Source of the DNA: Nitrospirota bacterium
Lineage (GTDB): Bacteria > JACPQY01
Direction of reading: 5' to 3'
Assembly (NCBI GenBank): GCA_016190245.1
Contig: JACPQY010000011.1
Span: 35,512-99,511, forward strand
Length of the DNA stretch: 64,000 nucleotides
This document shows, piece after piece, positions 2,214 through 15,972 of the stretch. The notes under the pieces were generated by a model, which saw only the letters and a program-made list of their open reading frames with translations, was not told the origin of the DNA and ran no database searches. Position numbers and translations under genes: made by a program. Numbering within the stretch: the first letter of the stretch is position 1; each line of letters opens with the position of its first letter.

Positions 2214-3713
2214 GTGCCGACCCTCGAAAGCCTGCCCCACGTCCTTCCCGAGGTGGCGCTCGCGGTCACCGCTGCGGCCCTGTTCGTCCTCGAAGCCCTG
2301 TGGCAGCCCCGGGGCCGAGCACGGCGCGTTGGGTTTCCGCTCTTGGCGCTGGGGGGCCTGCTCGCGGCGCTGCTGTTCCTCGTCGCCTCGCCATCCTCGG
2401 CGGAGCCGCGGTTCTTTGGCGGCCTCCTGACCCAGGATCCCTTCTCGACGTTCGTGCGCGGCGTCGCCATCGTCGCCACCGCCCTCGCCGTGGGGCTCGC
2501 TCTGGGAAGCCCCTCGCTGCCGTCGAATCGCCGCGTCGAGTATCACGGCCTCTTGGTCCTGCTCGCGCTCGGCATGTGCCTCCTCTCGAGTGCCGGTCAC
2601 CTGCTCATGATCTACGTGGCCATCGAGATCGTGAGCCTCACGTCCTACCTCCTCGCCGGCTTCGACGACCGCGGTGGGCGTTCGGCCGAGGCCGGCCTCA
2701 AGTACGTGCTCTTCGGTGGCGTCGCCTCCGGCGTGATGTTGTTCGGCTTCTCCCTGCTCTTCGGCCTCTTCGGCGACCTGTCGCTCTCAGGCCTCGGCCA
2801 GGCACTCGCGCACTCGACCACACTCTCGACGGGCGCCGGTCGCTGGGCGACGCTCCTGGCGCTCGTCTTCGTGCTCGCAGGCCTCGGCTTCAAGATCGCC
2901 GCGGTGCCCTTCCATATGTGGTGTCCCGATGTCTACGAAGGGGCGCCGACGCCCTTCACGGCCCTGCTCTCCGTGGGCCCGAAGGCGGCGGGCTTCGCGG
3001 TGCTGTTACGCTTCGGCACCGGCCTGTGGCCCGAGCTCGCGACCGACGCCGCCGCGGCAACGAGTGCGCTCCCGTGGCTCCTCCTCCTGGGCGTGATGTC
3101 CACGGTCACGATGACGGTCGGCAATCTCGCCGCTATCTGGCAGGACAATCTCAAGCGGCTGCTCGCATACTCGAGCATCGCGCACGCGGGCTACATGCTC
3201 ATGGGCGTGGTGGCGGGCGGCCGGGAGGGCCCGGGCGCCGTGGCGGTCTACCTGGCCGTCTACCTGATCATGAACATCGGGGCCTTCGCCGTGGTCTCCG
3301 CCGTGGATCGCTCGGCGCACAGCGAGGACATCGGCGTCTACCACGGCCTCGGACGGCGGGCCCCGCTCCTCGCCCTGGCCATGGCGGTGTTTCTCCTCTC
3401 GCTCACGGGACTTCCACCCACGGCGGGATTCGTGGGCAAGCTGTACCTCTTCGCCTCGCTCATCCATCACGGCGGCTTCTGGTACGTGCTGCTCGCCGTG
3501 GTGGGCGTTCTCAACAGCGTCGTGTCGCTCTATTTCTACGCCCGCGTACTCAGGGCCATGTTCCTTGAGAGCGCGGCCGGCGAGCCCGCGCCGGTGAGTC
3601 TCGCCAACTCGGCGGCGGCGCTCGCGGTCGTTCTCGCCGTCCCGACTCTCGCCCTCGGGATCTTCTGGCAGCCGCTGGCCGCCATCGCCAATTTCTCCGG
3701 CTCCCTCTTCTGA
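2214..3713 (+). CDS. nuoN: NADH-quinone oxidoreductase subunit N
   Basis: EAGLKY, FKIAAVPFHMWCPDVYEGAPTP, KRLLAYSSIAHAGY motifs. Confidence 0.97.
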   Translation: MPTLESLPHVLPEVALAVTAAALFVLEALWQPRGRARRVGFPLLALGGLLAALLFLVASPSSAEPRFFGGLLTQDPFSTFVRGVAIVATALAVGLALGSPSLPSNRRVEYHGLLVLLALGMCLLSSAGHLLMIYVAIEIVSLTSYLLAGFDDRGGRSAEAGLKYVLFGGVASGVMLFGFSLLFGLFGDLSLSGLGQALAHSTTLSTGAGRWATLLALVFVLAGLGFKIAAVPFHMWCPDVYEGAPTPFTALLSVGPKAAGFAVLLRFGTGLWPELATDAAAATSALPWLLLLGVMSTVTMTVGNLAAIWQDNLKRLLAYSSIAHAGYMLMGVVAGGREGPGAVAVYLAVYLIMNIGAFAVVSAVDRSAHSEDIGVYHGLGRRAPLLALAMAVFLLSLTGLPPTAGFVGKLYLFASLIHHGGFWYVLLAVVGVLNSVVSLYFYARVLRAMFLESAAGEPAPVSLANSAAALAVVLAVPTLALGIFWQPLAAIANFSGSLF

Positions 3714-3837
3714 CGCCGACGCCTAGGCGGAACCCCTCCATCTCCCCGTTGAACCGGTGCGAGATCGGACAAGATCGCTTGGATGTGGGCGCTCGTGCGC
3801 CGCAGTCCCACAGGGGTGGTGCCTGCCACGTCCGTAT

Positions 3838-3960
3838 CCCGCCGCGGCTCCGGCCGCCGAGGCCATCGCCGAGGATCCGTAAGTTGATTCCGAAATGTGC
3901 ACGACCTGCGACGAGTGCACGCGGATCAATCCGAGGATGTTCGCCTACAACGCGAACAAG
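3838..3960 (+). pseudogene. Fragment of a 4Fe-4S ferredoxin-like domain with internal stop
   Basis: Reads PAAAPAAEAIAEDP*VDSEMCTTCDECTRINPRMFAYNANK (TAA at 3880-3882); homology-like sequence stops at the repeat beginning 3962. Confidence 0.6.
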
Positions 3961-3961
3961 T

Positions 3962-4014
3962 ACTACTGGGGGTCACTACTGGGGGTCAGGTCTTGCAATC
4001 GTGCAATACGACGC
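3962..4014. repeat. REP-like GGGGTCAGGTCTTGCA element with 13-bp tandem duplication
   Basis: ACTACTGGGGGTC twice (3962-3987), then GTCTTGCA-ATCG-TGCAATAC imperfect hairpin; related copies near 4482-4504, 8291, 8381 and 8739. Confidence 0.6.
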
Positions 4015-4015
4015 A

Positions 4016-4081
4016 GAAGAGCGGCATGTGACGATTCCTGCGCACAGAGAAATCGATGCGGGAACACTCCGTGCGATCAGG
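4016..4081 (+). pseudogene. HicA-family toxin C-terminal fragment
   Basis: EERHVTIPAHREIDAGTLRAIR matches the HicA VTVPxH...GTLxxI motif; no N-terminus or start codon. Confidence 0.6.
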
Positions 4082-4112
4082 GCCGAGAACGGCCGGACTA
4101 TTTCCACAGGAA

Positions 4113-4200
4113 CTCCCCTCCTTTGTAAGGAGGGGAAAGGGGAGGTAGAGGCCGCCGGCGGGCTCTACCCCACCCAACCTCCCCTTACAAAGGGGAGGAG
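4113..4200. repeat. Inverted doublet of CCCCTCCTT..AAGGAGGGG palindromic REP-like repeats
   Basis: CTCCCCTCCTTTGTAAGGAGGGG...GGAGGTAGAG and CTCTACCCCACCCAACCTCCCCTTACAAAGGGGAGGAG. Confidence 0.7.
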
Positions 4201-4260
4201 ATTTCGGATGCACTCTGGCACTACTACGCCACTTTCGCAGAGCGGGAAACACCCCGATCC

Positions 4261-4317
4261 GTCGTCCCCGTGAAAGCGGGGACCCAGATTCTGGATTCCC
4301 GCCTGCGCGGGAATAAC
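4261..4317. repeat. dRS3/RPE-like palindromic repeat doublet (GTCATTCCCGCG...GGGAATGAC family)
   Basis: GTCGTCCCCGTGAAAGCGGGGACCCAG...CTGGATTCCCGCCTGCGCGGGAATAAC; second copy at 28051-28105. Confidence 0.7.
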
Positions 4318-4567
4318 GAGGAGTGGCCTCCCAAGTCGCCGGACCCGTCTCATGCACCGTCATCATGGCGAAAACCGGATGGCAACGGAGATCAAAGATG
4401 CGTTGTAGCGCTAGATCGCATCCCTACTGCGGACCCGGACGAGGCGCCCGGGCAGCGGCCGGCCGATCACCTTCGCCAAGAAGTCCAGAATCATGCCTGA
4501 CCCCGGTGTCCAGTAGCACGAGCTCCACGCCGACTCTCGTGGCCACATTCAACATGCCAACCACCTT

Positions 4568-4966
4568 TCAGTTCGGCCCATTCTTCTTGACTGCCGTCCG
4601 CCACAACACAAAGGCTCCAGCCACGGCGACTTCGGTCCACCGGCAGGGGTAGTAGCACTGCCCCCGGATCTCGCCGGGGGTTGTCCTGCTCGTCTCGAAT
4701 GTGACCCCGGGTCGCACGCCCGAGCCGCGCAAGACGGCGAGCTCCGTCCAGTAGAGCACCCCAGCCCAGACGAATCCCTCAATTCGCGTCAGACACCGGG
4801 GGTCCGGCCAGTAGAGCGTTCCGCGGAAACGAGGCGGGTCCACCTGCTCAACGGTCATGATCACGCGAAGGTCCGCGCAGGAATCGTCCCCGCATTCATG
4901 AAACCAGCCGTTCCACTCTCCGCACAGATTCGCCGGTTGGAGCGCAAGTCTGCGCGGATCCTTCAT
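4568..4966 (-). CDS. Hypothetical protein (132 aa, predicted beta-rich)
   Basis: ATGA overlap with upstream ORF; last gene of a coupled operon. Confidence 0.65.
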   Translation of the reverse strand: MKDPRRLALQPANLCGEWNGWFHECGDDSCADLRVIMTVEQVDPPRFRGTLYWPDPRCLTRIEGFVWAGVLYWTELAVLRGSGVRPGVTFETSRTTPGEIRGQCYYPCRWTEVAVAGAFVLWRTAVKKNGPN

Positions 4967-5166
4967 GGTGGCAACTCACGGGAGGAAGTTGATTCCCCGA
5001 TCGTGATGTTCAACTGCTTGTCGACGTACTGTTTGTCGATGTAGTAGGTCGAGCGGCGATACAGCTCGTCGTACAGCTCGATGTCCCGCTGCCAGCGCCA
5101 CCTCTCATACTTATCGATGGCCCTAGCGAGGCAGAATATCCCCCAAAGAATCAACAAGAACCCCAT
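4963..5166 (-). CDS. Small hypothetical protein with hydrophobic N-terminus (67 aa)
   Basis: GAGGAGG RBS before ATG 5166; MGFLLILWGIFCLA hydrophobic segment. Confidence 0.6.
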   Translation of the reverse strand: MGFLLILWGIFCLARAIDKYERWRWQRDIELYDELYRRSTYYIDKQYVDKQLNITIGESTSSRELPP

Positions 5167-5217
5167 GGGACCTCCTCTCGTTTTGGACGTTTTGCCATCA
5201 CCATGCGGCACCAACCC

Positions 5218-5739
5218 CTATTTTCGGAAAAGGCGTTTCACCCATCCGGAAAAGCCGGAACCTCTCCGTTCCCAAGCAGTCTTGTGCCGGTGGACGAATG
5301 TCGGCAGGAGTTGCATGTTCGACGGCGTATCAAGGCCGCCTTTGAATAGGGGCGTCACGTGGTCGACCTGGTATCCGGTTGGGACCTTTGAGTATCCCCG
5401 GCTTTTCAGAAAGGCCGACTTGGCGAAAAGGCTCCGGGTCCGAACCGCCAGCCCGGTTGTCCTGTATCGACGACCGGTTGTAAAAGATCGACCAACCGAT
5501 GCCCCGCCTATCCTCGAGGATCCTGGCCTCCGGATCCTCGGCATCCGAAATCGCGGCGTGGTCGCGGCACGCGAGATGCGAAACGGCTTGAACGCTGGAG
5601 CATGGCTGCGGAACCCTGCAGATATCCTGCTCCGTGGAGTCCGCACCCGGTGCGGTCGGAGTCGAACGCCTCTTCCCATCCGTGGAGAACGGAATGGGCG
5701 GAAGCTCGATCTGGAGGCACGATACCTAAGTATTCGCAT
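5218..5739 (-). CDS. HNH endonuclease with long Arg-rich N-terminal region
   Basis: GYQVDHVTPLFKGGLDTPSNMQLL..H..KT HNH motif; AAGGGGG RBS before ATG 5739. Confidence 0.8.
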   Translation of the reverse strand: MRILRYRASRSSFRPFRSPRMGRGVRLRPHRVRTPRSRISAGFRSHAPAFKPFRISRAATTPRFRMPRIRRPGSSRIGGASVGRSFTTGRRYRTTGLAVRTRSLFAKSAFLKSRGYSKVPTGYQVDHVTPLFKGGLDTPSNMQLLPTFVHRHKTAWERRGSGFSGWVKRLFRK

Positions 5740-5968
5740 GTGTTCCCCCTTTCGCGGGTTGTTGTGGTCCTGAACCGCAATGAGCGGTGGTTCGGTCCGA
5801 ACCTGCCCAACACCGAAGTTTCGCTGCGCGAACTTGCTCGGTGGCGCTCCGGAAGCACCTTGAGCACAGATCATGGCCGTCCACGAACTTCCAGATCGGC
5901 GCGGCCCTGTCCCGAGCCAGTCTGACGACGATTCTCCTACCGCAGGTGCAGATTCTTGGAATTCTCAT
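5726..5968 (-). CDS. Small putative Zn-binding protein (CxC...CxxC)
   Basis: GGGAGG RBS, ATGA overlap with upstream gene; ICTCGR...HDLCSRC. Confidence 0.55.
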   Translation of the reverse strand: MRIPRICTCGRRIVVRLARDRAAPIWKFVDGHDLCSRCFRSATEQVRAAKLRCWAGSDRTTAHCGSGPQQPAKGGTHANT

Positions 5969-6336
5969 GCCGACCTCCCTTGACCATTCGTGCGATTGAA
6001 GGAGCCTTCTGTCTTCAACGGATTCCGGAACAGATTCTCCGCCCACCTGATCTGCTCGTCCGTGAAGAGGGGCCTGAAACGATATTCGAGCATGAGCGCC
6101 TCGAATGACAGGTGGAGACAGCCCGCCATGTGCAGGCGGTAAATCCCATCCGATCCGTGATCCGAATACCTACCCATGAGTTCGAGGACAGTACGGTGCG
6201 CGTCACCTCCGTTCTTGCGAAGCATTTCAATGATTCGCCCTGGCCGGTACCCGACCTTCGCGGGTATTTCCACGGTGTACCGGTATTGAAATGCCCGGTT
6301 GAACTCTCGTAGAAGATCAGCCTTGTTTGTATTCAT
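5965..6336 (-). CDS. Hypothetical protein (123 aa)
   Basis: AGGAGG RBS; GY.P...M....GG...SDG...L....L.LS.EAL.L....LFT.E pattern recalls an uncharacterised domain seen near or fused to restriction-type nucleases. Confidence 0.75.
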   Translation of the reverse strand: MNTNKADLLREFNRAFQYRYTVEIPAKVGYRPGRIIEMLRKNGGDAHRTVLELMGRYSDHGSDGIYRLHMAGCLHLSFEALMLEYRFRPLFTDEQIRWAENLFRNPLKTEGSFNRTNGQGRSA

Positions 6337-6413
6337 CTCGTGCCTCCTTCTTCCGTCTTCCGCATTTAGTAGGGATTCATTCGGGCTCCGTCATTCGTCT
6401 CGTTCATCCAACC

Positions 6414-6499
6414 ATTATATCGTGGGTTCGATCAGGCCATAATTCGTTTTATCGTATTGACAAACTAGTGAATACAAATAGATACAAATATCTAGTTTG
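6414..6499 (-). promoter_or_regulatory. Putative -10 box and operator upstream of the HNH operon
   Basis: TATAAT on minus strand (6414-6419); inverted repeat CAAACTAG (6461-6468)/CTAGTTTG (6492-6499) enclosing ATACAAATA twice. Confidence 0.5.
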
Positions 6500-6604
6500 A
6501 GGGAACTACCAGTTTCCAAACTCTATACAGTAAGTGGGAACTAATACCGATGGGGAGCCGTTGTGGCGATATATGATTGTTGGTTCAGCCTTTCTGGGGA
6601 GGAA

Positions 6605-8287
6605 TCAGGGGCGGTCGGGATAGCGGCGGCGAAGTATGGTGATGATCTTGTTTACATTTTCCTCAGATAAATCGAATTTCCCCCAAGATAATTTCTTGCC
6701 TGTGATTTCCCAGAGCAGGTCCAAGTCCGGCTTGGTCACAAATTCGCGGATTCCGTCTTGCCTCTCATACTCGGCGATCCCGTAGGCTCCCGCTTTTCCG
6801 TTTGCGTATGCCCACACCAGCAACTCACCTCGGCAAGAATATATCCTGAAGGTTGGAATCTGGGTCCCGGTCCCGAACATGATCAAGAGATCGGGGTGCT
6901 CGCGGGCGAAGTTGTACAATCGTCTCGCTTGCTCACCGTCGCCCCCCATCACCCCGCACAGGCCAAAAAAGGATTCCTCATCCCATTTCGCGCCCTTGCT
7001 GGTCTTCACCTCGTAAGGAGGACATCCCACGTGCCGAGCGCCATGTCTCGGCCACCAAAATATTCTCGCGCCCACTTCGATTAGTCCCCCGCAGGAAAGA
7101 CAGTGGCCGAGACGCCTGGATTTCATCCCTACTTCCGCAGGTCTTCTCATTGACGATCTCTGACGCAACCAATCGGGCCACCCGCGGGGGATAGGCTTCG
7201 CCTCCGGGACAGCGGCATCGGGGGAGATCAACTTGAACTCCCTTTTCTTGTTGTCCACTTCCGGTTTCTCGAATTTTGGCCGGCTGTGTGGACCCAGCAG
7301 CAAGTTACGCCAGAGACCATCTCCTAATTCGCCGGACGAGATCTCCTGCCCGTGGGCAACCGTTAGGGCCCATCGATAGGAGAATGCATTAGAGTATGGT
7401 TGATCGGGTGGGACGCGTGCCGGGGCGAGATGGATCAACTCCCTGGCCTCTGAAAGGATCTTGTTGATTCGCGCTCGCAGGCCATTGTTGTCCGCCCATT
7501 CCAAAGTCGAATTCGCCTCGGGTGGTATCCCTCCAAGAAAATCCTCTGGCTCGCTCAGCCTTAATTCAGGCCAGAGAAACCGATGGACAGCCGTGGAAGG
7601 GGGAAGGTTGTGCTGAATGAATCTGCTCAGCACCCCATCCTTTGCCATCCTGACCAGCCCCAGCCGATGGTGGAGGTGCAAATCACCCGATCCTTGGACA
7701 GGCAATTCGACTTGGAACAAGCCAACGAGCCGAACACCGCCGCCGGAGCGGTGGGTGGAATCCAACTCCACTGATGCGATCCACGTTCGTTGACCGAGTC
7801 CCTCATGGAAATTCTCCGCCGGGCCAAACAGGATCCTCCGGAATGTATCGTGCATCTTCCACGCGGACTGATACGACCCGAGGGGCAATCGTCGTTGAAG
7901 CTCTTTCGCAGTTGCTCCGCACTCTGCGACCAAGTACGCACCTAGGAACCATTTTCTCACCGGGATCCTGGACCCTTCCATCACCGTGCCGGCCAGGAGA
8001 GACACGTGCTTTCGGCATTTGATACAAGTCCGGCGGCTCGGTCGTTCAGTTTCCCGCCACTTCAAGCCCCCTCCGCATCCGGCGCTTGGACACGACAGTC
8101 CGCCCTTCCGTCTCTCATGCCACTCCGCGAGATATGCGTAACAGGCTTCATCCGTCCCGAAGCGCGCCGAAAAGTCTGCTACGCCTCGTTCCTTCTCTTC
8201 ACCGAAGTTGGCCATGAACGAATCATAACCAACGATTAGCCCGCGCTCCAGCTCAGCCCGGCTCAACGGACACCGCACTTTCTGCAC
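6605..8287 (-). CDS. IS1595-family transposase-derived protein, catalytic motif degenerate, with extra C-terminal Zn-finger-like and unknown domains (alternative start 8215)
   Basis: F.TDEAC..YL, CP..GC/C..CR, SLLAGT.MEGSRIP..KWF..AYL, ELQRRL..GSYQSAW.M = IS1595 N-terminal Zn-ribbon/HTH; VELDST replaces VExDET, VHRF replaces V.TD. Confidence 0.75.
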   Translation of the reverse strand: MQKVRCPLSRAELERGLIVGYDSFMANFGEEKERGVADFSARFGTDEACYAYLAEWHERRKGGLSCPSAGCGGGLKWRETERPSRRTCIKCRKHVSLLAGTVMEGSRIPVRKWFLGAYLVAECGATAKELQRRLPLGSYQSAWKMHDTFRRILFGPAENFHEGLGQRTWIASVELDSTHRSGGGVRLVGLFQVELPVQGSGDLHLHHRLGLVRMAKDGVLSRFIQHNLPPSTAVHRFLWPELRLSEPEDFLGGIPPEANSTLEWADNNGLRARINKILSEARELIHLAPARVPPDQPYSNAFSYRWALTVAHGQEISSGELGDGLWRNLLLGPHSRPKFEKPEVDNKKREFKLISPDAAVPEAKPIPRGWPDWLRQRSSMRRPAEVGMKSRRLGHCLSCGGLIEVGARIFWWPRHGARHVGCPPYEVKTSKGAKWDEESFFGLCGVMGGDGEQARRLYNFAREHPDLLIMFGTGTQIPTFRIYSCRGELLVWAYANGKAGAYGIAEYERQDGIREFVTKPDLDLLWEITGKKLSWGKFDLSEENVNKIITILRRRYPDRP

Positions 8288-8419
8288 GCCGGGGGTCAGG
8301 CTCTGGGGCCAGGATTCTGGACTCTGGTCGATCTATCTTTCGGGTTGAGGGGCCAATCAGAAGGATGCAAGCAAGGGACCTGGGGTCAGGTCTTGCCATC
8401 GTTCAGGTCGCCGGTTCGT

Positions 8420-8626
8420 CCGGCCTCCATAGCGCTGGTGGCAGGACATCGGGCAGCCCACGCAGCGGAACCCGGCCGGCGAAAGGTGCGAACCTTGCGG
8501 CGGGCCTGCAGACCCTCGCGGGTCCCGGCGAGATCGTCGTCAGCGCCTCCACCTACACCTCGGCCAGAGGCTTCGTCACCGAAACGGACCTCGGCGAAGG
8601 TCCGGTCAAGGGCATCGCGCGGCCTA
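8420..8626 (+). pseudogene. Class III adenylate/guanylate cyclase C-terminal fragment
   Basis: ANLAAGLQTLAGPGEIVVSASTY...DLGEGPVKGI matches NLAARLQ..A.PG.I.IS..T...LG...LKG; upstream part frameshifted, no N-terminus. Confidence 0.65.
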
Positions 8627-8953
8627 CCGCGGGGCGGTCGTCAGTCCACCTCGGTGATGTCGGGGTCGCGCATGTCACGCCCGACAATCACCTTCGTCTT
8701 CCCATTGCGGTTGTGCGACGGTGCGACGGCGGTGCGACGGTGTCAGGTCTTTCGTTCGTTCTTTTGGAACTGGCTCGAAAAATCCACATGGGCCGTTGTT
8801 CGCGCGTATGGAAGGGGTTTCGTGGGACAGCTTCGTGCTTCGTGATACCGCGGGGAAAGACTCTCCTTCCGTGCGTCGCACCACTGGTGCGCGCTTGTCT
8901 GTCCCGATCCGTCATTGCTTTTGCCCTCTCGCAGTCGTATCCTATTCTCACTC

Positions 8954-9196
8954 ATGAAACGGAAAATGGAAGCCGTGTACGAAAACGGCACCCTCAAACT
9001 GGCCGAGCCGCTGCCGCTGGCGGAACACGCACGCGTCTACGTAACTGTTGAGGACCCGCGGGAGAACGACGACGATCCGTCAGAATACGCATGGCTCCGC
9101 GGCGCGGCGTCAAACTCGGCCTTCGACTTCCTGAACGATCCGGCTGAGGATATCTACGGCCCGGCCGACGGGAAGCCGTTCCGTGACGCGGAATAG
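8954..9196 (+). CDS. DUF104/AF2212-like antitoxin
   Basis: EAVYENGTLKLAEPLPL.E...V.VTV motif; acidic C-terminus (FDFLNDPAEDIY); overlaps downstream toxin start. Confidence 0.8.
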   Translation: MKRKMEAVYENGTLKLAEPLPLAEHARVYVTVEDPRENDDDPSEYAWLRGAASNSAFDFLNDPAEDIYGPADGKPFRDAE

Positions 9197-9526
9197 CATC
9201 GTTCTCGTCCCTTTCCCCTTCGACGATCTTTCCGGAACAAAGGTCAGGCACTCTGTTTGACGTAGCCGATCGGTCCCCAGCGTCACGTGATCATCGCCTT
9301 CATCACCAGCCGCATCCCACCGGACCCTGTCGGGACCGATCGTGTGATTTCCGCCGACCACCGTGACTTCGCGTCGACCGGTCTGCGAGTCGCTTCCACG
9401 GTACGCCTGCATCGGATGATGACGATCTCCTCGAAACTTGTCCGTCGGAAGTTGGGTTCGCTCCCTTCAGCATTTCATGAGGAGGTGAGGCGGAACATTT
9501 CCGCCCTATTCTCGCTGGTGGAATGA
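9183..9526 (+). pseudogene. PemK/MazF-family toxin, inactivated (frameshift plus nonsense)
   Basis: IVLVPFPFDDLSGTKVR, frameshift, then LCLT*PIGPQRHVIIAFITS...TGLRVASTVRLHRMMT...KLGSL. Confidence 0.8.
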
Positions 9527-9646
9527 CCGGACACTTCCAGAGAAGGTAACCAGTGCCGGAATGGCACTCTTGTGCTCCCCCTCAAGGGCTGGTGATGAGA
9601 ACTGCCATATGCGTGAGGTCAAATCGGGGAGCTTTCGGATGGACTC

Positions 9647-11161
9647 TTACTTGATCCGCCGGCCCTTGGTGCGGAGGTGCAATGTGCCGTGGAGGCTCGC
9701 CAGGTAAAGCTTTCCGGCGTTCTGGAGACACCACGCGTAGTCCGGACTCGATGCCGAGATGCCCACGTTCAACACGTTGTCCTCCGAGAGGGTGGGGCCG
9801 GACGGGTCGAACACGTCCGTCACGGAAAAGGTCAGCGTCTCGATGCAGGTCCTGGATGCCTGGGTCTCGTCATCCCAGTAGGGGACGGGGATTTCGACGA
9901 CCGACGCGCCGCTCATCGAGAGGGGCGAGTGATAGATCACCTCCGTGAGTGTCCGCCTCCCCATGGGCTCGTCCAGCGTCACAAAGAAACCCGGCTTCTC
10001 CGCCGTGGCGGAGAGGTTGAACGCGACGCCCTCTTCACCTCGAATGAACCTGTTGAGATAAGCCGTATCCACCGTTCGCTCGCGGATGCAGACATCCGGC
10101 GGATCCTCTTCCAACGCGCCGATGCAGGCGGAGTAGCAGACCGCCTGCTCGGCGGCGCCGGTAAGAGACATGCACGTCCGGCGCTCTCCACCAGGGCCGG
10201 CGGACTCACAGACGCCGAGGAAATCCTCCCAATTCCCAGACGCTGGTGGTTCGGGGGCAAACGCGAAAGCCTTCTCAAGCGATTCCTGTCCAACCTGCAA
10301 GGCTGCGCCAAGTCCCGCAAGGATCTTCTCTGATAAACCCTCCGTGGATCCGCAACCCTCGAAAAGGCCCTCGCTCGTCCAGACGCCGAACAGGTACCTC
10401 CGGCGGTCCGAGGCCGAGTCTCTGATAACCGCGCGATGGAGATAGATGAGCTTCCCACCGATTTCCATCAAGCGGGGAGGACAGTCTTCTATCGCCGTGC
10501 CCTTCCACCATTTGCACTCCGTCTCCTCCCACGTGCCCGTGAAGTCGAAGTTCGGATCCTCAGCCTCCGCCTGCTTCACCGATGAAACCACCACCTGCGA
10601 GAGACGCGACAGGTCCGCTACCGCCGCGTAGGCGGCACGGTCAACGATCACGGTGCCGAGATCGGCATCGCGGTCCAGGCTCACACCACCGGCGAGGGCC
10701 TCGGCCGATCCCACCTTGAAGATGAGGTCGGCCACGCGCTCCCCCGCCCCATCGAGCACGAAGCATCCGAACGGAACCTGGGCGGCGGCAAGCGACAGGA
10801 CGAACCGGGACGACGCATCGGTCACTCCCTTCCCGGCCCGGGGCGTTTCTTCAAATGTCACGCAGTAGAGAGCGTATCCGGATAGCGATCCTCCCGAGGC
10901 GCCGGCACGCCGAAGCCCCGAGGCACGCACACCTTCTTCCTGCCCCGCCCTCACGCCGCCGCTTTGTCCGGCCCGCACGCCCATGCGGACCCCGTCGCTC
11001 AACACCCCCTCCGCAAGTGTTCCGGTCAGTTTGAGCTCATCGCCCTCCCCCTTGGCCGCGTCGCTGCCGGTACAGCCGAGCATACAGGCAACGGCCAGGA
11101 CGCCGGCCGCGCCCCGCACGGTCGGCCAGAGAATCCCCCACTCGGACAAGCTCCCCACCAT
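9647..11161 (-). CDS. Putative lipoprotein, Cys-rich; paralog of 15973-17181
   Basis: Signal/lipobox-like VACMLGC; shared GY...C....GC.VLD..G.RVADL.F...LG.V.VD...GTW pattern. Confidence 0.75.
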   Translation of the reverse strand: MVGSLSEWGILWPTVRGAAGVLAVACMLGCTGSDAAKGEGDELKLTGTLAEGVLSDGVRMGVRAGQSGGVRAGQEEGVRASGLRRAGASGGSLSGYALYCVTFEETPRAGKGVTDASSRFVLSLAAAQVPFGCFVLDGAGERVADLIFKVGSAEALAGGVSLDRDADLGTVIVDRAAYAAVADLSRLSQVVVSSVKQAEAEDPNFDFTGTWEETECKWWKGTAIEDCPPRLMEIGGKLIYLHRAVIRDSASDRRRYLFGVWTSEGLFEGCGSTEGLSEKILAGLGAALQVGQESLEKAFAFAPEPPASGNWEDFLGVCESAGPGGERRTCMSLTGAAEQAVCYSACIGALEEDPPDVCIRERTVDTAYLNRFIRGEEGVAFNLSATAEKPGFFVTLDEPMGRRTLTEVIYHSPLSMSGASVVEIPVPYWDDETQASRTCIETLTFSVTDVFDPSGPTLSEDNVLNVGISASSPDYAWCLQNAGKLYLASLHGTLHLRTKGRRIK

Positions 11162-15614: not shown

Positions 15615-15737
15615 GGTTGGCGGGCGGGTTCGCCGGGTGGCCGCTGTAGCCCCGGGCATAGACCCATCCATGCCCCCTCGCGCTTCGCGCGGTCATCGTG
15701 GCCGCGCCTGATGCTCGGGGACAAACCATCCATGGCA

Positions 15738-15810
15738 TGGGTCGTGCAGGACTCGAACCTGCGGCCCGCTGATTAAGAGTCAGCTGCTCTACCAGCTGAG
15801 CTAACGACCC
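15738..15810 (-). tRNA. tRNA-Lys(CTT)
   Basis: GGGTCGTTAGCTCAGCTGGTAGAGC, anticodon arm GCTGA-CTCTTAA-TCAGC, GGTTCGAGTCC, acceptor ACGACCC-A; no encoded CCA. Confidence 0.96.
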
Positions 15811-15972
15811 ATCCGGACCTCGGCCGGGAGGGGCCGATACCCGGAGGGGGCGTGAACGAGGGTAAGCATAAACGGATCGTGGGCGCGTGACAACCGGGGA
15901 GGTCAAACGTGGGGAGGTCAAACGTGAAGTCGTGAGGTCGGGAGGTCGGGAGATCGCGAGGCCCCGGAGGGG

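Follow-up and report, generated by a model that had tools for sequence, protein, structure and literature searches.

A low-GC block of six genes between two diverged REP copies in a groundwater Nitrospirota genome, read as a probably acquired, lineage-specific islet

A 64,000-nt stretch from the genome of a Nitrospirota bacterium (contig C83, positions 35512-99511; hereafter the window, with its first letter as position 1) contains a block of six minus-strand genes between positions 4568 and 8215, which encode a transposase-derived fusion protein, a small HNH protein and four further small proteins. On balance, we regard this block as a fixed, probably acquired and lineage-specific islet within an accessory region rich in repetitive extragenic palindromic (REP) elements, carried by an uncultured groundwater bacterium of a sparsely sampled phylum. 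The inverted repeats that bracket the block resemble the ends of a mobile element and are, by their sequence, two diverged REP copies of the host. The source is a metagenome-assembled genome of 3.29 Mb on 86 contigs with a completeness of 84.8% (G000), and the stretch was present in four sequencing runs, all from a single groundwater-metagenome study.

Anatomy, composition and fixation of the block

The GC content of the block is 0.573, compared to a genome mean of 0.647 (standard deviation 0.018); among 5987 windows of equal length, only 0.15% reach so low a value. The GC content at third codon positions (GC3) ranges from 0.58 to 0.78 in the six genes and is 0.89 in nuoN. The block is thus a compositional outlier, for which a foreign origin is likely. 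A preliminary description of this DNA had already pointed to the lower GC content and to the gene order with its mostly short junctions, and both observations hold. The block comprises the following features:

6605..8215, minus strand: fusion protein (536 aa); ATG at 8215, open reading frame (ORF) open back to a GTG at 8287
6337..6604, minus strand: AT-rich intergenic region, GC content about 0.46
5965..6336, minus strand: p123 (123 aa, basic); GGAGG ribosome-binding site upstream
5726..5968, minus strand: 80-aa protein, putative zinc ribbon (C7xC9...C35xxC38); GGGAGG upstream
5218..5739, minus strand: HNH protein (173 aa); 20% Arg, isoelectric point 12.0
4963..5166, minus strand: 67-aa protein with one N-terminal hydrophobic segment (Kyte-Doolittle mean of 2.1 over residues 1-17); GGAGG upstream
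4568..4966, minus strand: 132-aa protein with 6 Cys; ATGA-coupled to the preceding gene

Within the five-gene operon, p123 and the 80-aa protein gene as well as the genes of the 67-aa and 132-aa proteins are joined by ATGA overlaps, and the remaining junctions are one 14-nt overlap and one 51-nt gap. Shine-Dalgarno-like sites precede four of the six starts (GGAGG, GGGAGG, GGGGG and GGAGG). With these four sites, the two ATGA couplings and the intact HNH residues described below, the genes look translatable. The intergenic region at 6337-6604 contains a TATAAT hexamer and an AAACTAG/CTAGTTT inverted repeat that encloses two ATTTGTAT direct repeats. A consensus promoter scan of this region found no sigma-70 site, so that we only infer a promoter here; nevertheless, the region is likely the putative promoter/operator of the operon.

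The islet is fixed in the sampled population. Contigs from three samples of the one study show equal depth within the block and on either side of it (14-16x), and they span both block borders without differences. In the fourth run, X4, a low share (0.39) accompanies a low depth (0-3x). No contig in the four runs joins across the block as an empty or excised site would require. Two joints, 4002 to 8382 and 3863 to 9895, were each supported by one contig with 24 letters on one side that lie inside REP copies; due to this one-sided support, both were treated as repeat artefacts. A tblastn search with the six proteins against the source genome, 84.8% complete as stated above, returned their own locus alone.

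The comparison library included two genomes of the phylum, namely the source genome and G001, both of one family. Housekeeping genes of the two share about 67% DNA identity, NuoN of G001 is 48% identical to the source protein at the amino acid level, and the gene order diverges directly after nuoN. Thus, the sole other genome of the family has no common gene order past nuoN in which an empty site could be seen. No integrase was found among the ORFs scanned. An island at the tRNA-Lys gene (15737-15811) was considered and discarded, as there is no tRNA-derived repeat near the block and the neighbour of the tRNA gene encodes a molybdopterin oxidoreductase.

The inverted ends and the REP family of the host

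The two arms of the inverted repeat and the other REP copies around the block are as follows:

4482..4513, minus strand: left arm, REP copy of the subfamily GGGGTCAGGCATGATTCTGGACTTC (minus-strand reading); head CCTGACCCC at 4496-4504, facing the block
8282..8323, plus strand: right arm, REP copy with a 9-10 nt insertion; head GGGGTCAGG at about 8292-8300, facing the block
3982..4005, plus strand: REP copy, GGGGTCAGGTCTTGC subfamily, as found on both sides of the Y1-transposase gene on contig C74
8382..8405, plus strand: REP copy, GGGGTCAGGTCTTGC subfamily, 92% identical with 3982-4005 and directly oriented to it
8739-8762: degenerate third copy of the GGGGTCAGGTCTTGC type

As the preliminary description had claimed, the arms are imperfect inverted copies of each other. 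When reverse-complemented, 4482-4513 matches 8282-8323 at 29 of its 32 positions, with about 10 additional bases on the side of the right arm. The local alignment score of 32 exceeds that of all 500 shuffles (mean 15.8, standard deviation 2.4, maximum 29). Outward of both arms, a weak similarity extends over about 9 nt. Because of the indel, the arm pair is missing from the 25 longest repeats of a gapless repeat finder.

Both arms carry the head GGGGTCAGG, which is the head of a short extragenic repeat dispersed over the genome in dozens of copies. The sequence GGGGTCAGGTCTTGC occurs 26 times at no more than one mismatch (reversed control: 0) and GGGGTCAGGC occurs 24 times. G001 also carries the REP motif, with 9 copies vs 0 for the control, so that the family can be assigned to the lineage of the host rather than to a low-GC block that came in from outside. 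This would agree with the vertical inheritance described for REPIN-RAYT systems, i.e., REP doublets forming hairpins (REPINs) and REP-associated tyrosine transposases (RAYTs), in one report (10.1101/2022.05.22.493013). Eight Y1_Tnp (PF01797) genes, for proteins of 220-338 aa, are present in the source genome (at C13:23683, C79:86370, C79:44320, C28:69405, C68:363, C22:36679, C74:23051 and C81:18246), and seven of these genes have an inverted flanking pair of their own with heads GGGGTCA.. or GGGGAC... The C74 gene has GGGGTCAGGTCTTGCA... on its upstream side and ...TGCAAGACCTGACCCC on its downstream side, which is the type found at 3982 and 8382. At the C13 gene, the downstream REP ...CTCCAAAATCATGCCTGACCCC overlaps the 3' end of the ORF and equals the left arm at 22 of 25 positions. 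The earlier suggestion of REP-type ends is thus borne out, since the arms carry the head of the family that flanks Y1-transposase genes on C74 and C13. Several REP/Y1-transposase systems seem to coexist in this 3.3-Mb genome. Compared to the RAYTs of the literature, whose genes are given as about 500 bp in Pseudomonas (PMC3337134) and as typically present in one copy per genome (10.1101/119735), the eight Y1 proteins of the host are much longer and more numerous; a RAYT-like label is therefore tentative, with IS200-like transposases as the alternative. A decayed Y1-transposase gene beside the arms was also looked for, by tblastn of the eight host proteins against 3700-4600 and 8200-9700, and was dismissed at a best E of 0.04. 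As there is no recognisable Y1 remnant beside the arms, the left-arm reading EVQNHA-stop, which recalls KLQNHA-stop at the end of the C13 gene, is explained by the REP itself.

If the block were one mobile unit with the inverted arms as its ends, a Y1 transposase could have moved it in trans. Membership of the arms in the REP family, the eight Y1_Tnp proteins with their inverted flanks and the crowding of REPs around the block would all suit such a unit. Five copies lie there (3983+, 4496-, 8293+, 8383+ and 8740+), so that 5 of 35 motif copies fall within 4.9 kb where 0.05 are expected, a count obtained with a pattern written after the arms had been seen; the unbiased earlier pattern gives 2 of 26. 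However, the orientation and spacing of the arms argue against a unit of this kind. All seven close REP pairs in the genome are head-out, namely six short doublets (63-291 nt from start to start) and the pair around the C74 gene, whereas the arms of the block are head-in and 3.8 kb apart. They share with REPs the head, the flanking of Y1_Tnp genes by inverted family members and the formation of short head-out doublets elsewhere in the genome, and they do not have the short-doublet REPIN layout themselves; for Pseudomonas fluorescens SBW25, inter-REP distances of 71, 104-105 and 110 bp are given (PMC3337134). Moreover, the arms do not look like a matched pair. The right arm, with its insertion, is the most diverged copy. 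The left arm needs a 9-nt gap to match it, and is 22/25 identical without any gap to each of the copies at C13:24600 and C38:20686, so that its best partners are located on other contigs. The block is also present in a single copy and no excised form was found in the four runs. Movement of the block as a Y1-dependent unit is therefore very unlikely. From the earlier idea of one acquired unit moved in trans, the foreign composition stands, whereas the movement as a unit finds no support, given dispersed REP arms in head-in orientation and the lack of a duplication, a second copy or an empty site.

The block could also represent a decayed "transporter" insertion sequence (IS) of the IS1595 family, with a transposase gene at one end, five passenger genes and terminal inverted repeats of its own. 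IS1595-family elements with passenger genes exist, and elements of this family generate a target-site duplication of 8 bp. The geometry would fit, as the transposase-like gene begins 67 nt inside one arm and reads inward and the last gene stops 55 nt from the other arm; the IS1595 ancestry of the N-terminal 210 residues of the fusion protein and the foreign composition would fit as well. However, no direct repeat of at least 6 nt is present within about 40 nt outside either arm, where only two 5-mers are shared, and thus the block differs from IS1595 elements in being single-copy and without target duplication. Its inverted ends are REP copies of the host, which match the REP at a host Y1-transposase gene and belong to a family also present in G001. 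The third catalytic motif of the transposase is missing or changed, the fusion has no PF12762 match, and neither another IS1595 copy nor any PF12762 domain was found in the source genome, within its completeness. We thus consider a decayed transporter IS quite unlikely. Most likely, the arms would be independent REP insertions, or REPs that were already present at the landing site, and not termini of the block.

The fusion protein and the proteins of the operon

The first part of the fusion protein is derived from an IS1595-family transposase, as had been proposed from the letters alone. Residues ~10-215 align with the IS1595-type zinc ribbon, the helix-turn-helix and the first part of the DDE fold. 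The protein matches the NCBIfam model transpos_IS1595 with an E of 2.6e-5 at model positions 2-67 of 215 (24 bits vs a cut-off of 75), phrog_25593 with an E of 3.7e-12 and, by BLASTP, an IS1595 transposase with PF12760 and PF12762 domains (P0002) with 28% identity over residues 39-262 (pairwise E 1e-14). Among plasmids, 176 records match with E down to 6e-17, none of which covers 80% of the query; the ten matches listed cover 38% of the fusion and are either annotated as IS1595 family or DDE transposase or unannotated. A single record of the phage collection matched, at residues 15-97 only. The zinc ribbon, the helix-turn-helix, the VE-x-D-x-T motif and the second Asp align with those of IS1595 transposases at 28-32% identity, and VELDST and ADNNG of the fusion correspond to the first two acidic motifs (alignment A3). 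The region of the third motif, N-x-x-E...K in the two compared transposases, is a gap in A3, and the candidate found by eye, SNAFSYRW, has Ser in place of Glu. A complete DDE domain is not recognisable in the fusion, and Pfam gave no match at E<=1, neither to PF12760 nor to PF12762.

The fusion differs from IS1595 transposases not only in the unrecognised third motif but also in about 320 unique C-terminal residues. This part, residues ~216-536 or about 60% of the protein, has no recognisable relative and contains a second CxxC...C element. The fusion, p123 and the 132-aa protein were searched for by a word index over 5.8 billion clusters, and the HNH protein by an exhaustive HMMER search. No full-length relative of the fusion was found among the clusters. 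With the C-terminal 322 residues, only three matches were obtained in 401 genomes (E 0.0016-0.0073 per genome), which is chance level, and the Atlas returned no usable match. PDB sequences gave nothing at E<=10 for the fusion.

In the HNH protein, the HNH domain is C-terminal and is preceded by an N-terminal part that is Arg-rich and of low complexity. It is assigned to the HNH endonuclease superfamily by its His-Asn-His motif: D171-H172, N186 and H195 (numbering of the 218-aa ORF) are intact and invariant in an alignment of relatives (A1), of which the block protein retains 24 of 24 invariant columns including DH...N...H. Against the Pfam HNH model it scores 14.5 bits and so stays under the cut-off of 21.4, and HNH families of PHROG match. 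The search yielded 489 representatives at E<=1e-3, which form a widespread family of small HNH proteins. The C-terminal 80 residues show 33-44% overall identity to relatives and up to 68% over the matched stretch. Among solved structures, the family profile has its nearest relative in Cas8f-HNH chains (E 3e-13), and the block protein itself matches the Cas8f-HNH domain with an E of 1.4e-6. The HNH domain of Cas8-HNH cuts DNA, according to two reports (PMC11480323, PMC11459484). All 13 aligned relatives in A1 have a hydrophobic, signal-peptide-like N-terminus and a linker rich in Ser, Tyr and Lys, whereas the block protein lacks such a hydrophobic N-terminus and has an Arg-rich linker. The relatives occur singly and in varying surroundings, and no gene neighbours are conserved in this small secreted HNH family (P0004-P0152; loci L027-L090).

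The p123 protein belongs to a sparse, unnamed family with members of about 100-126 aa. The word-index search returned only p123 itself, a six-frame search of the 401 genomes revealed two remote relatives (39% and 34% identity) and a scan of metagenomes revealed three loci; neither p123 nor its relatives match a Pfam or NCBIfam family. In the alignment of the family (A2), p123 keeps 23 invariant columns, including GG, a G-x-L-x-L-x-x-E core and LFT. The neighbours differ each time among the five relatives, and none of them is an HNH or IS1595-like gene. They encode an Mrr-type restriction enzyme, a DUF488 protein with an HTH-M78 peptidase, or an AAA ATPase with a truncated S8 peptidase.

For the 80-aa, 67-aa and 132-aa proteins, no family match was found in Pfam, PADLOC, NCBIfam or PHROG. 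The 132-aa protein found only itself by word index. In the feature search of the Atlas, its nearest clusters are unnamed hypothetical proteins of 128-153 aa (scores of 0.93-0.94), which we take as a lead only, and an Avidin score of 0.86 on 16% of the members is a weak lead.

Possible functions and the genomic setting

The preliminary description had seen in the operon a candidate for a new defence or selfish module that is not one of the named systems. In line with the latter, a search with PADLOC-DB 2.0 identified no known or candidate system, and returned only two weak matches, HTH (E 0.03) and REase_II (E 0.0087), the second of which concerns a 31-residue stretch of the 83-aa form of the 67-aa-protein ORF (4963-5214). 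The idea that the operon, mobile or not, is a functional defence or toxin-immunity module of a novel, nuclease-based type would be consistent with the intact catalytic residues of the HNH protein and its nearest solved relative, a domain that cuts DNA according to the reports cited above. The tight coupling of the genes to those of small partners, the neighbours of the p123 relatives and the toxin-antitoxin pair next door (see below) also agree with it. Furthermore, with the signal peptide lost, the nuclease would stay inside the cell. However, there is no PADLOC match at a meaningful E-value, and a conserved gene set around the HNH gene did not emerge: none of the 64 HNH-relative loci encodes relatives of the other five block proteins, and the largest neighbour family occurs at 5 of the 64. 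The single match of the fusion protein among these loci (L064) is an ordinary IS1595 transposase. In addition, the fusion, p123 (as to close relatives) and the 132-aa protein are without word-index relatives, and the p123 family offers only four independent contexts. Since so few genomes of the lineage are available, the absent conservation of the gene set says more about sampling than about function. All in all, a working defence module appears to be of quite low probability. The preliminary description had itself named what would speak against one acquired unit, and most of this was observed: the other block genes do not co-occur with the HNH relatives at the 64 loci, and the arms are dispersed REPs; an empty site was not seen.

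The ORFs could also be decaying remnants without function. Most of the genes are orphans, the block lies within a repeat-laden stretch, the transposase lacks one catalytic motif and the HNH protein the signal peptide of its family. On the other hand, none of the six frames is interrupted, there are ribosome-binding sites at four starts and ATGA couplings at two junctions, the catalytic residues of the HNH protein are retained and so are the 23 invariant A2 columns of p123. We therefore regard functionless remnants as unlikely.

Several of the observations nevertheless weigh against the islet reading or against a function of its operon. The flat codon-position GC of the HNH and 80-aa genes, like the altered N-terminus of the HNH protein, also fits decay. 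The distances of 67 and 55 nt between arms and genes are those of an IS with its own ends. At repeat position 17, the REP copies at 3982 and 8382 both have an A, which is absent from the other GGGGTCAGGTCTTGC-type copies listed, and hence they could be a duplication that arose from integration of the block, though this may be chance. As there is no sufficiently close relative for an empty site, the argument for acquisition is one of composition. The proposed operon function finds no support in a PADLOC match, and the single-sequence AlphaFold2 models of the fusion and p123 (mean predicted local distance difference test scores of 36.1 and 43.5) are both unusable. Finally, scans of viral contigs report two stretches that encode relatives of p123 and one for the 132-aa protein, without returning a locus, and an exact 30-mer search of viral contigs found nothing, so that a link to a virus-like contig is neither seen nor excluded. 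The alignment of the p123 family (A2), the C-terminal part of the fusion and the HNH protein had no relatives in viral contigs. A plasmid or phage origin was rejected as a candidate, with no tblastn match of p123 in either collection and none of the 132-aa protein in plasmids.

For a probably acquired islet as favoured here, the following picture would arise. The fusion protein may be a transposase relic that kept the zinc ribbon, the helix-turn-helix and two acidic motifs and gained about 320 residues. It would no longer transpose and would act, if at all, as a DNA-binding protein, possibly by binding the repeat-bearing AT-rich region beside its gene, which in turn may drive the tightly coupled five-gene operon. 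The only recognisable enzyme of this operon would be a small HNH nuclease of a normally secreted type, here in a strongly basic form that stays in the cytoplasm. As a best guess, the operon might thus encode a nucleic-acid-cutting module that is restrained by small partners, of the addiction or defence type. In its most far-reaching form, a dead IS1595 transposase would have been domesticated as DNA-recognising or regulatory partner of an operon with a cytoplasm-retargeted HNH protein, as an undescribed defence or addiction module so far private to a barely sampled groundwater phylum; this is speculative, and its probability is distinctly low.

Between nuoN and the conserved genes that follow, there is an accessory stretch of 5.9 kb. 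It includes the block and is crowded with REP elements of the host and other small repeats, besides a toxin-antitoxin pair of the MazF type. At 8915-9526, an AF2212-like antitoxin (PF01954, E 2e-8) and a PemK/MazF toxin (PF02452, E 2e-6) are encoded, whereby the toxin ORF spans model positions 39-108 only. The pair is 78% identical in DNA to a locus of G001, far above the genome-wide level, and is thus probably mobile between both lineages. An 88-nt near-perfect palindrome at 4113-4200 (CTCCCCTCCTTTGTAAGGAGGGGAAAGGGGAGG...), with half-copies on at least 12 other contigs of the source genome, represents a second small repeat family unrelated to the REPs. Rfam gave nothing relevant, with only sub-threshold matches of microRNA models on this palindrome, which were disregarded. 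Two more short repeats (4260-4314 and 8640-8713) have copies elsewhere in the source genome and occur in G001 with 84-93% identity. A remnant of a cyclase gene at 8500-8640, suggested by a motif, was dropped, since the ORF 8365-9051 has no Pfam match at E<=0.1. A second REP-rich and slightly low-GC stretch was found on another contig (C38:12000-27000, L110), with genes for a nucleotidyltransferase/HEPN pair, a DUF433 protein, a 1040-aa Kelch/fn3 protein and several unnamed ORFs. Since this stretch also has toxin-antitoxin-like genes and unnamed ORFs, REP crowding seems to mark accessory regions in this genome.

These data indicate that REP copies of a host can mimic the terminal repeats of a mobile element. 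As a side result, the small secreted HNH family is, among solved structures, the closest relative by sequence of the HNH domain of type I-F Cas8-HNH. For the present, the significance of the block itself is small, as it contributes one more transposase-derived fusion protein and a few orphan genes of a lineage that is poorly sampled. Its significance would be greater if the fusion were indeed a domesticated DNA-binding relic that controls a cytoplasmic HNH nuclease, or if the crowding of five REP copies around the block reflected a REP-assisted capture of DNA.

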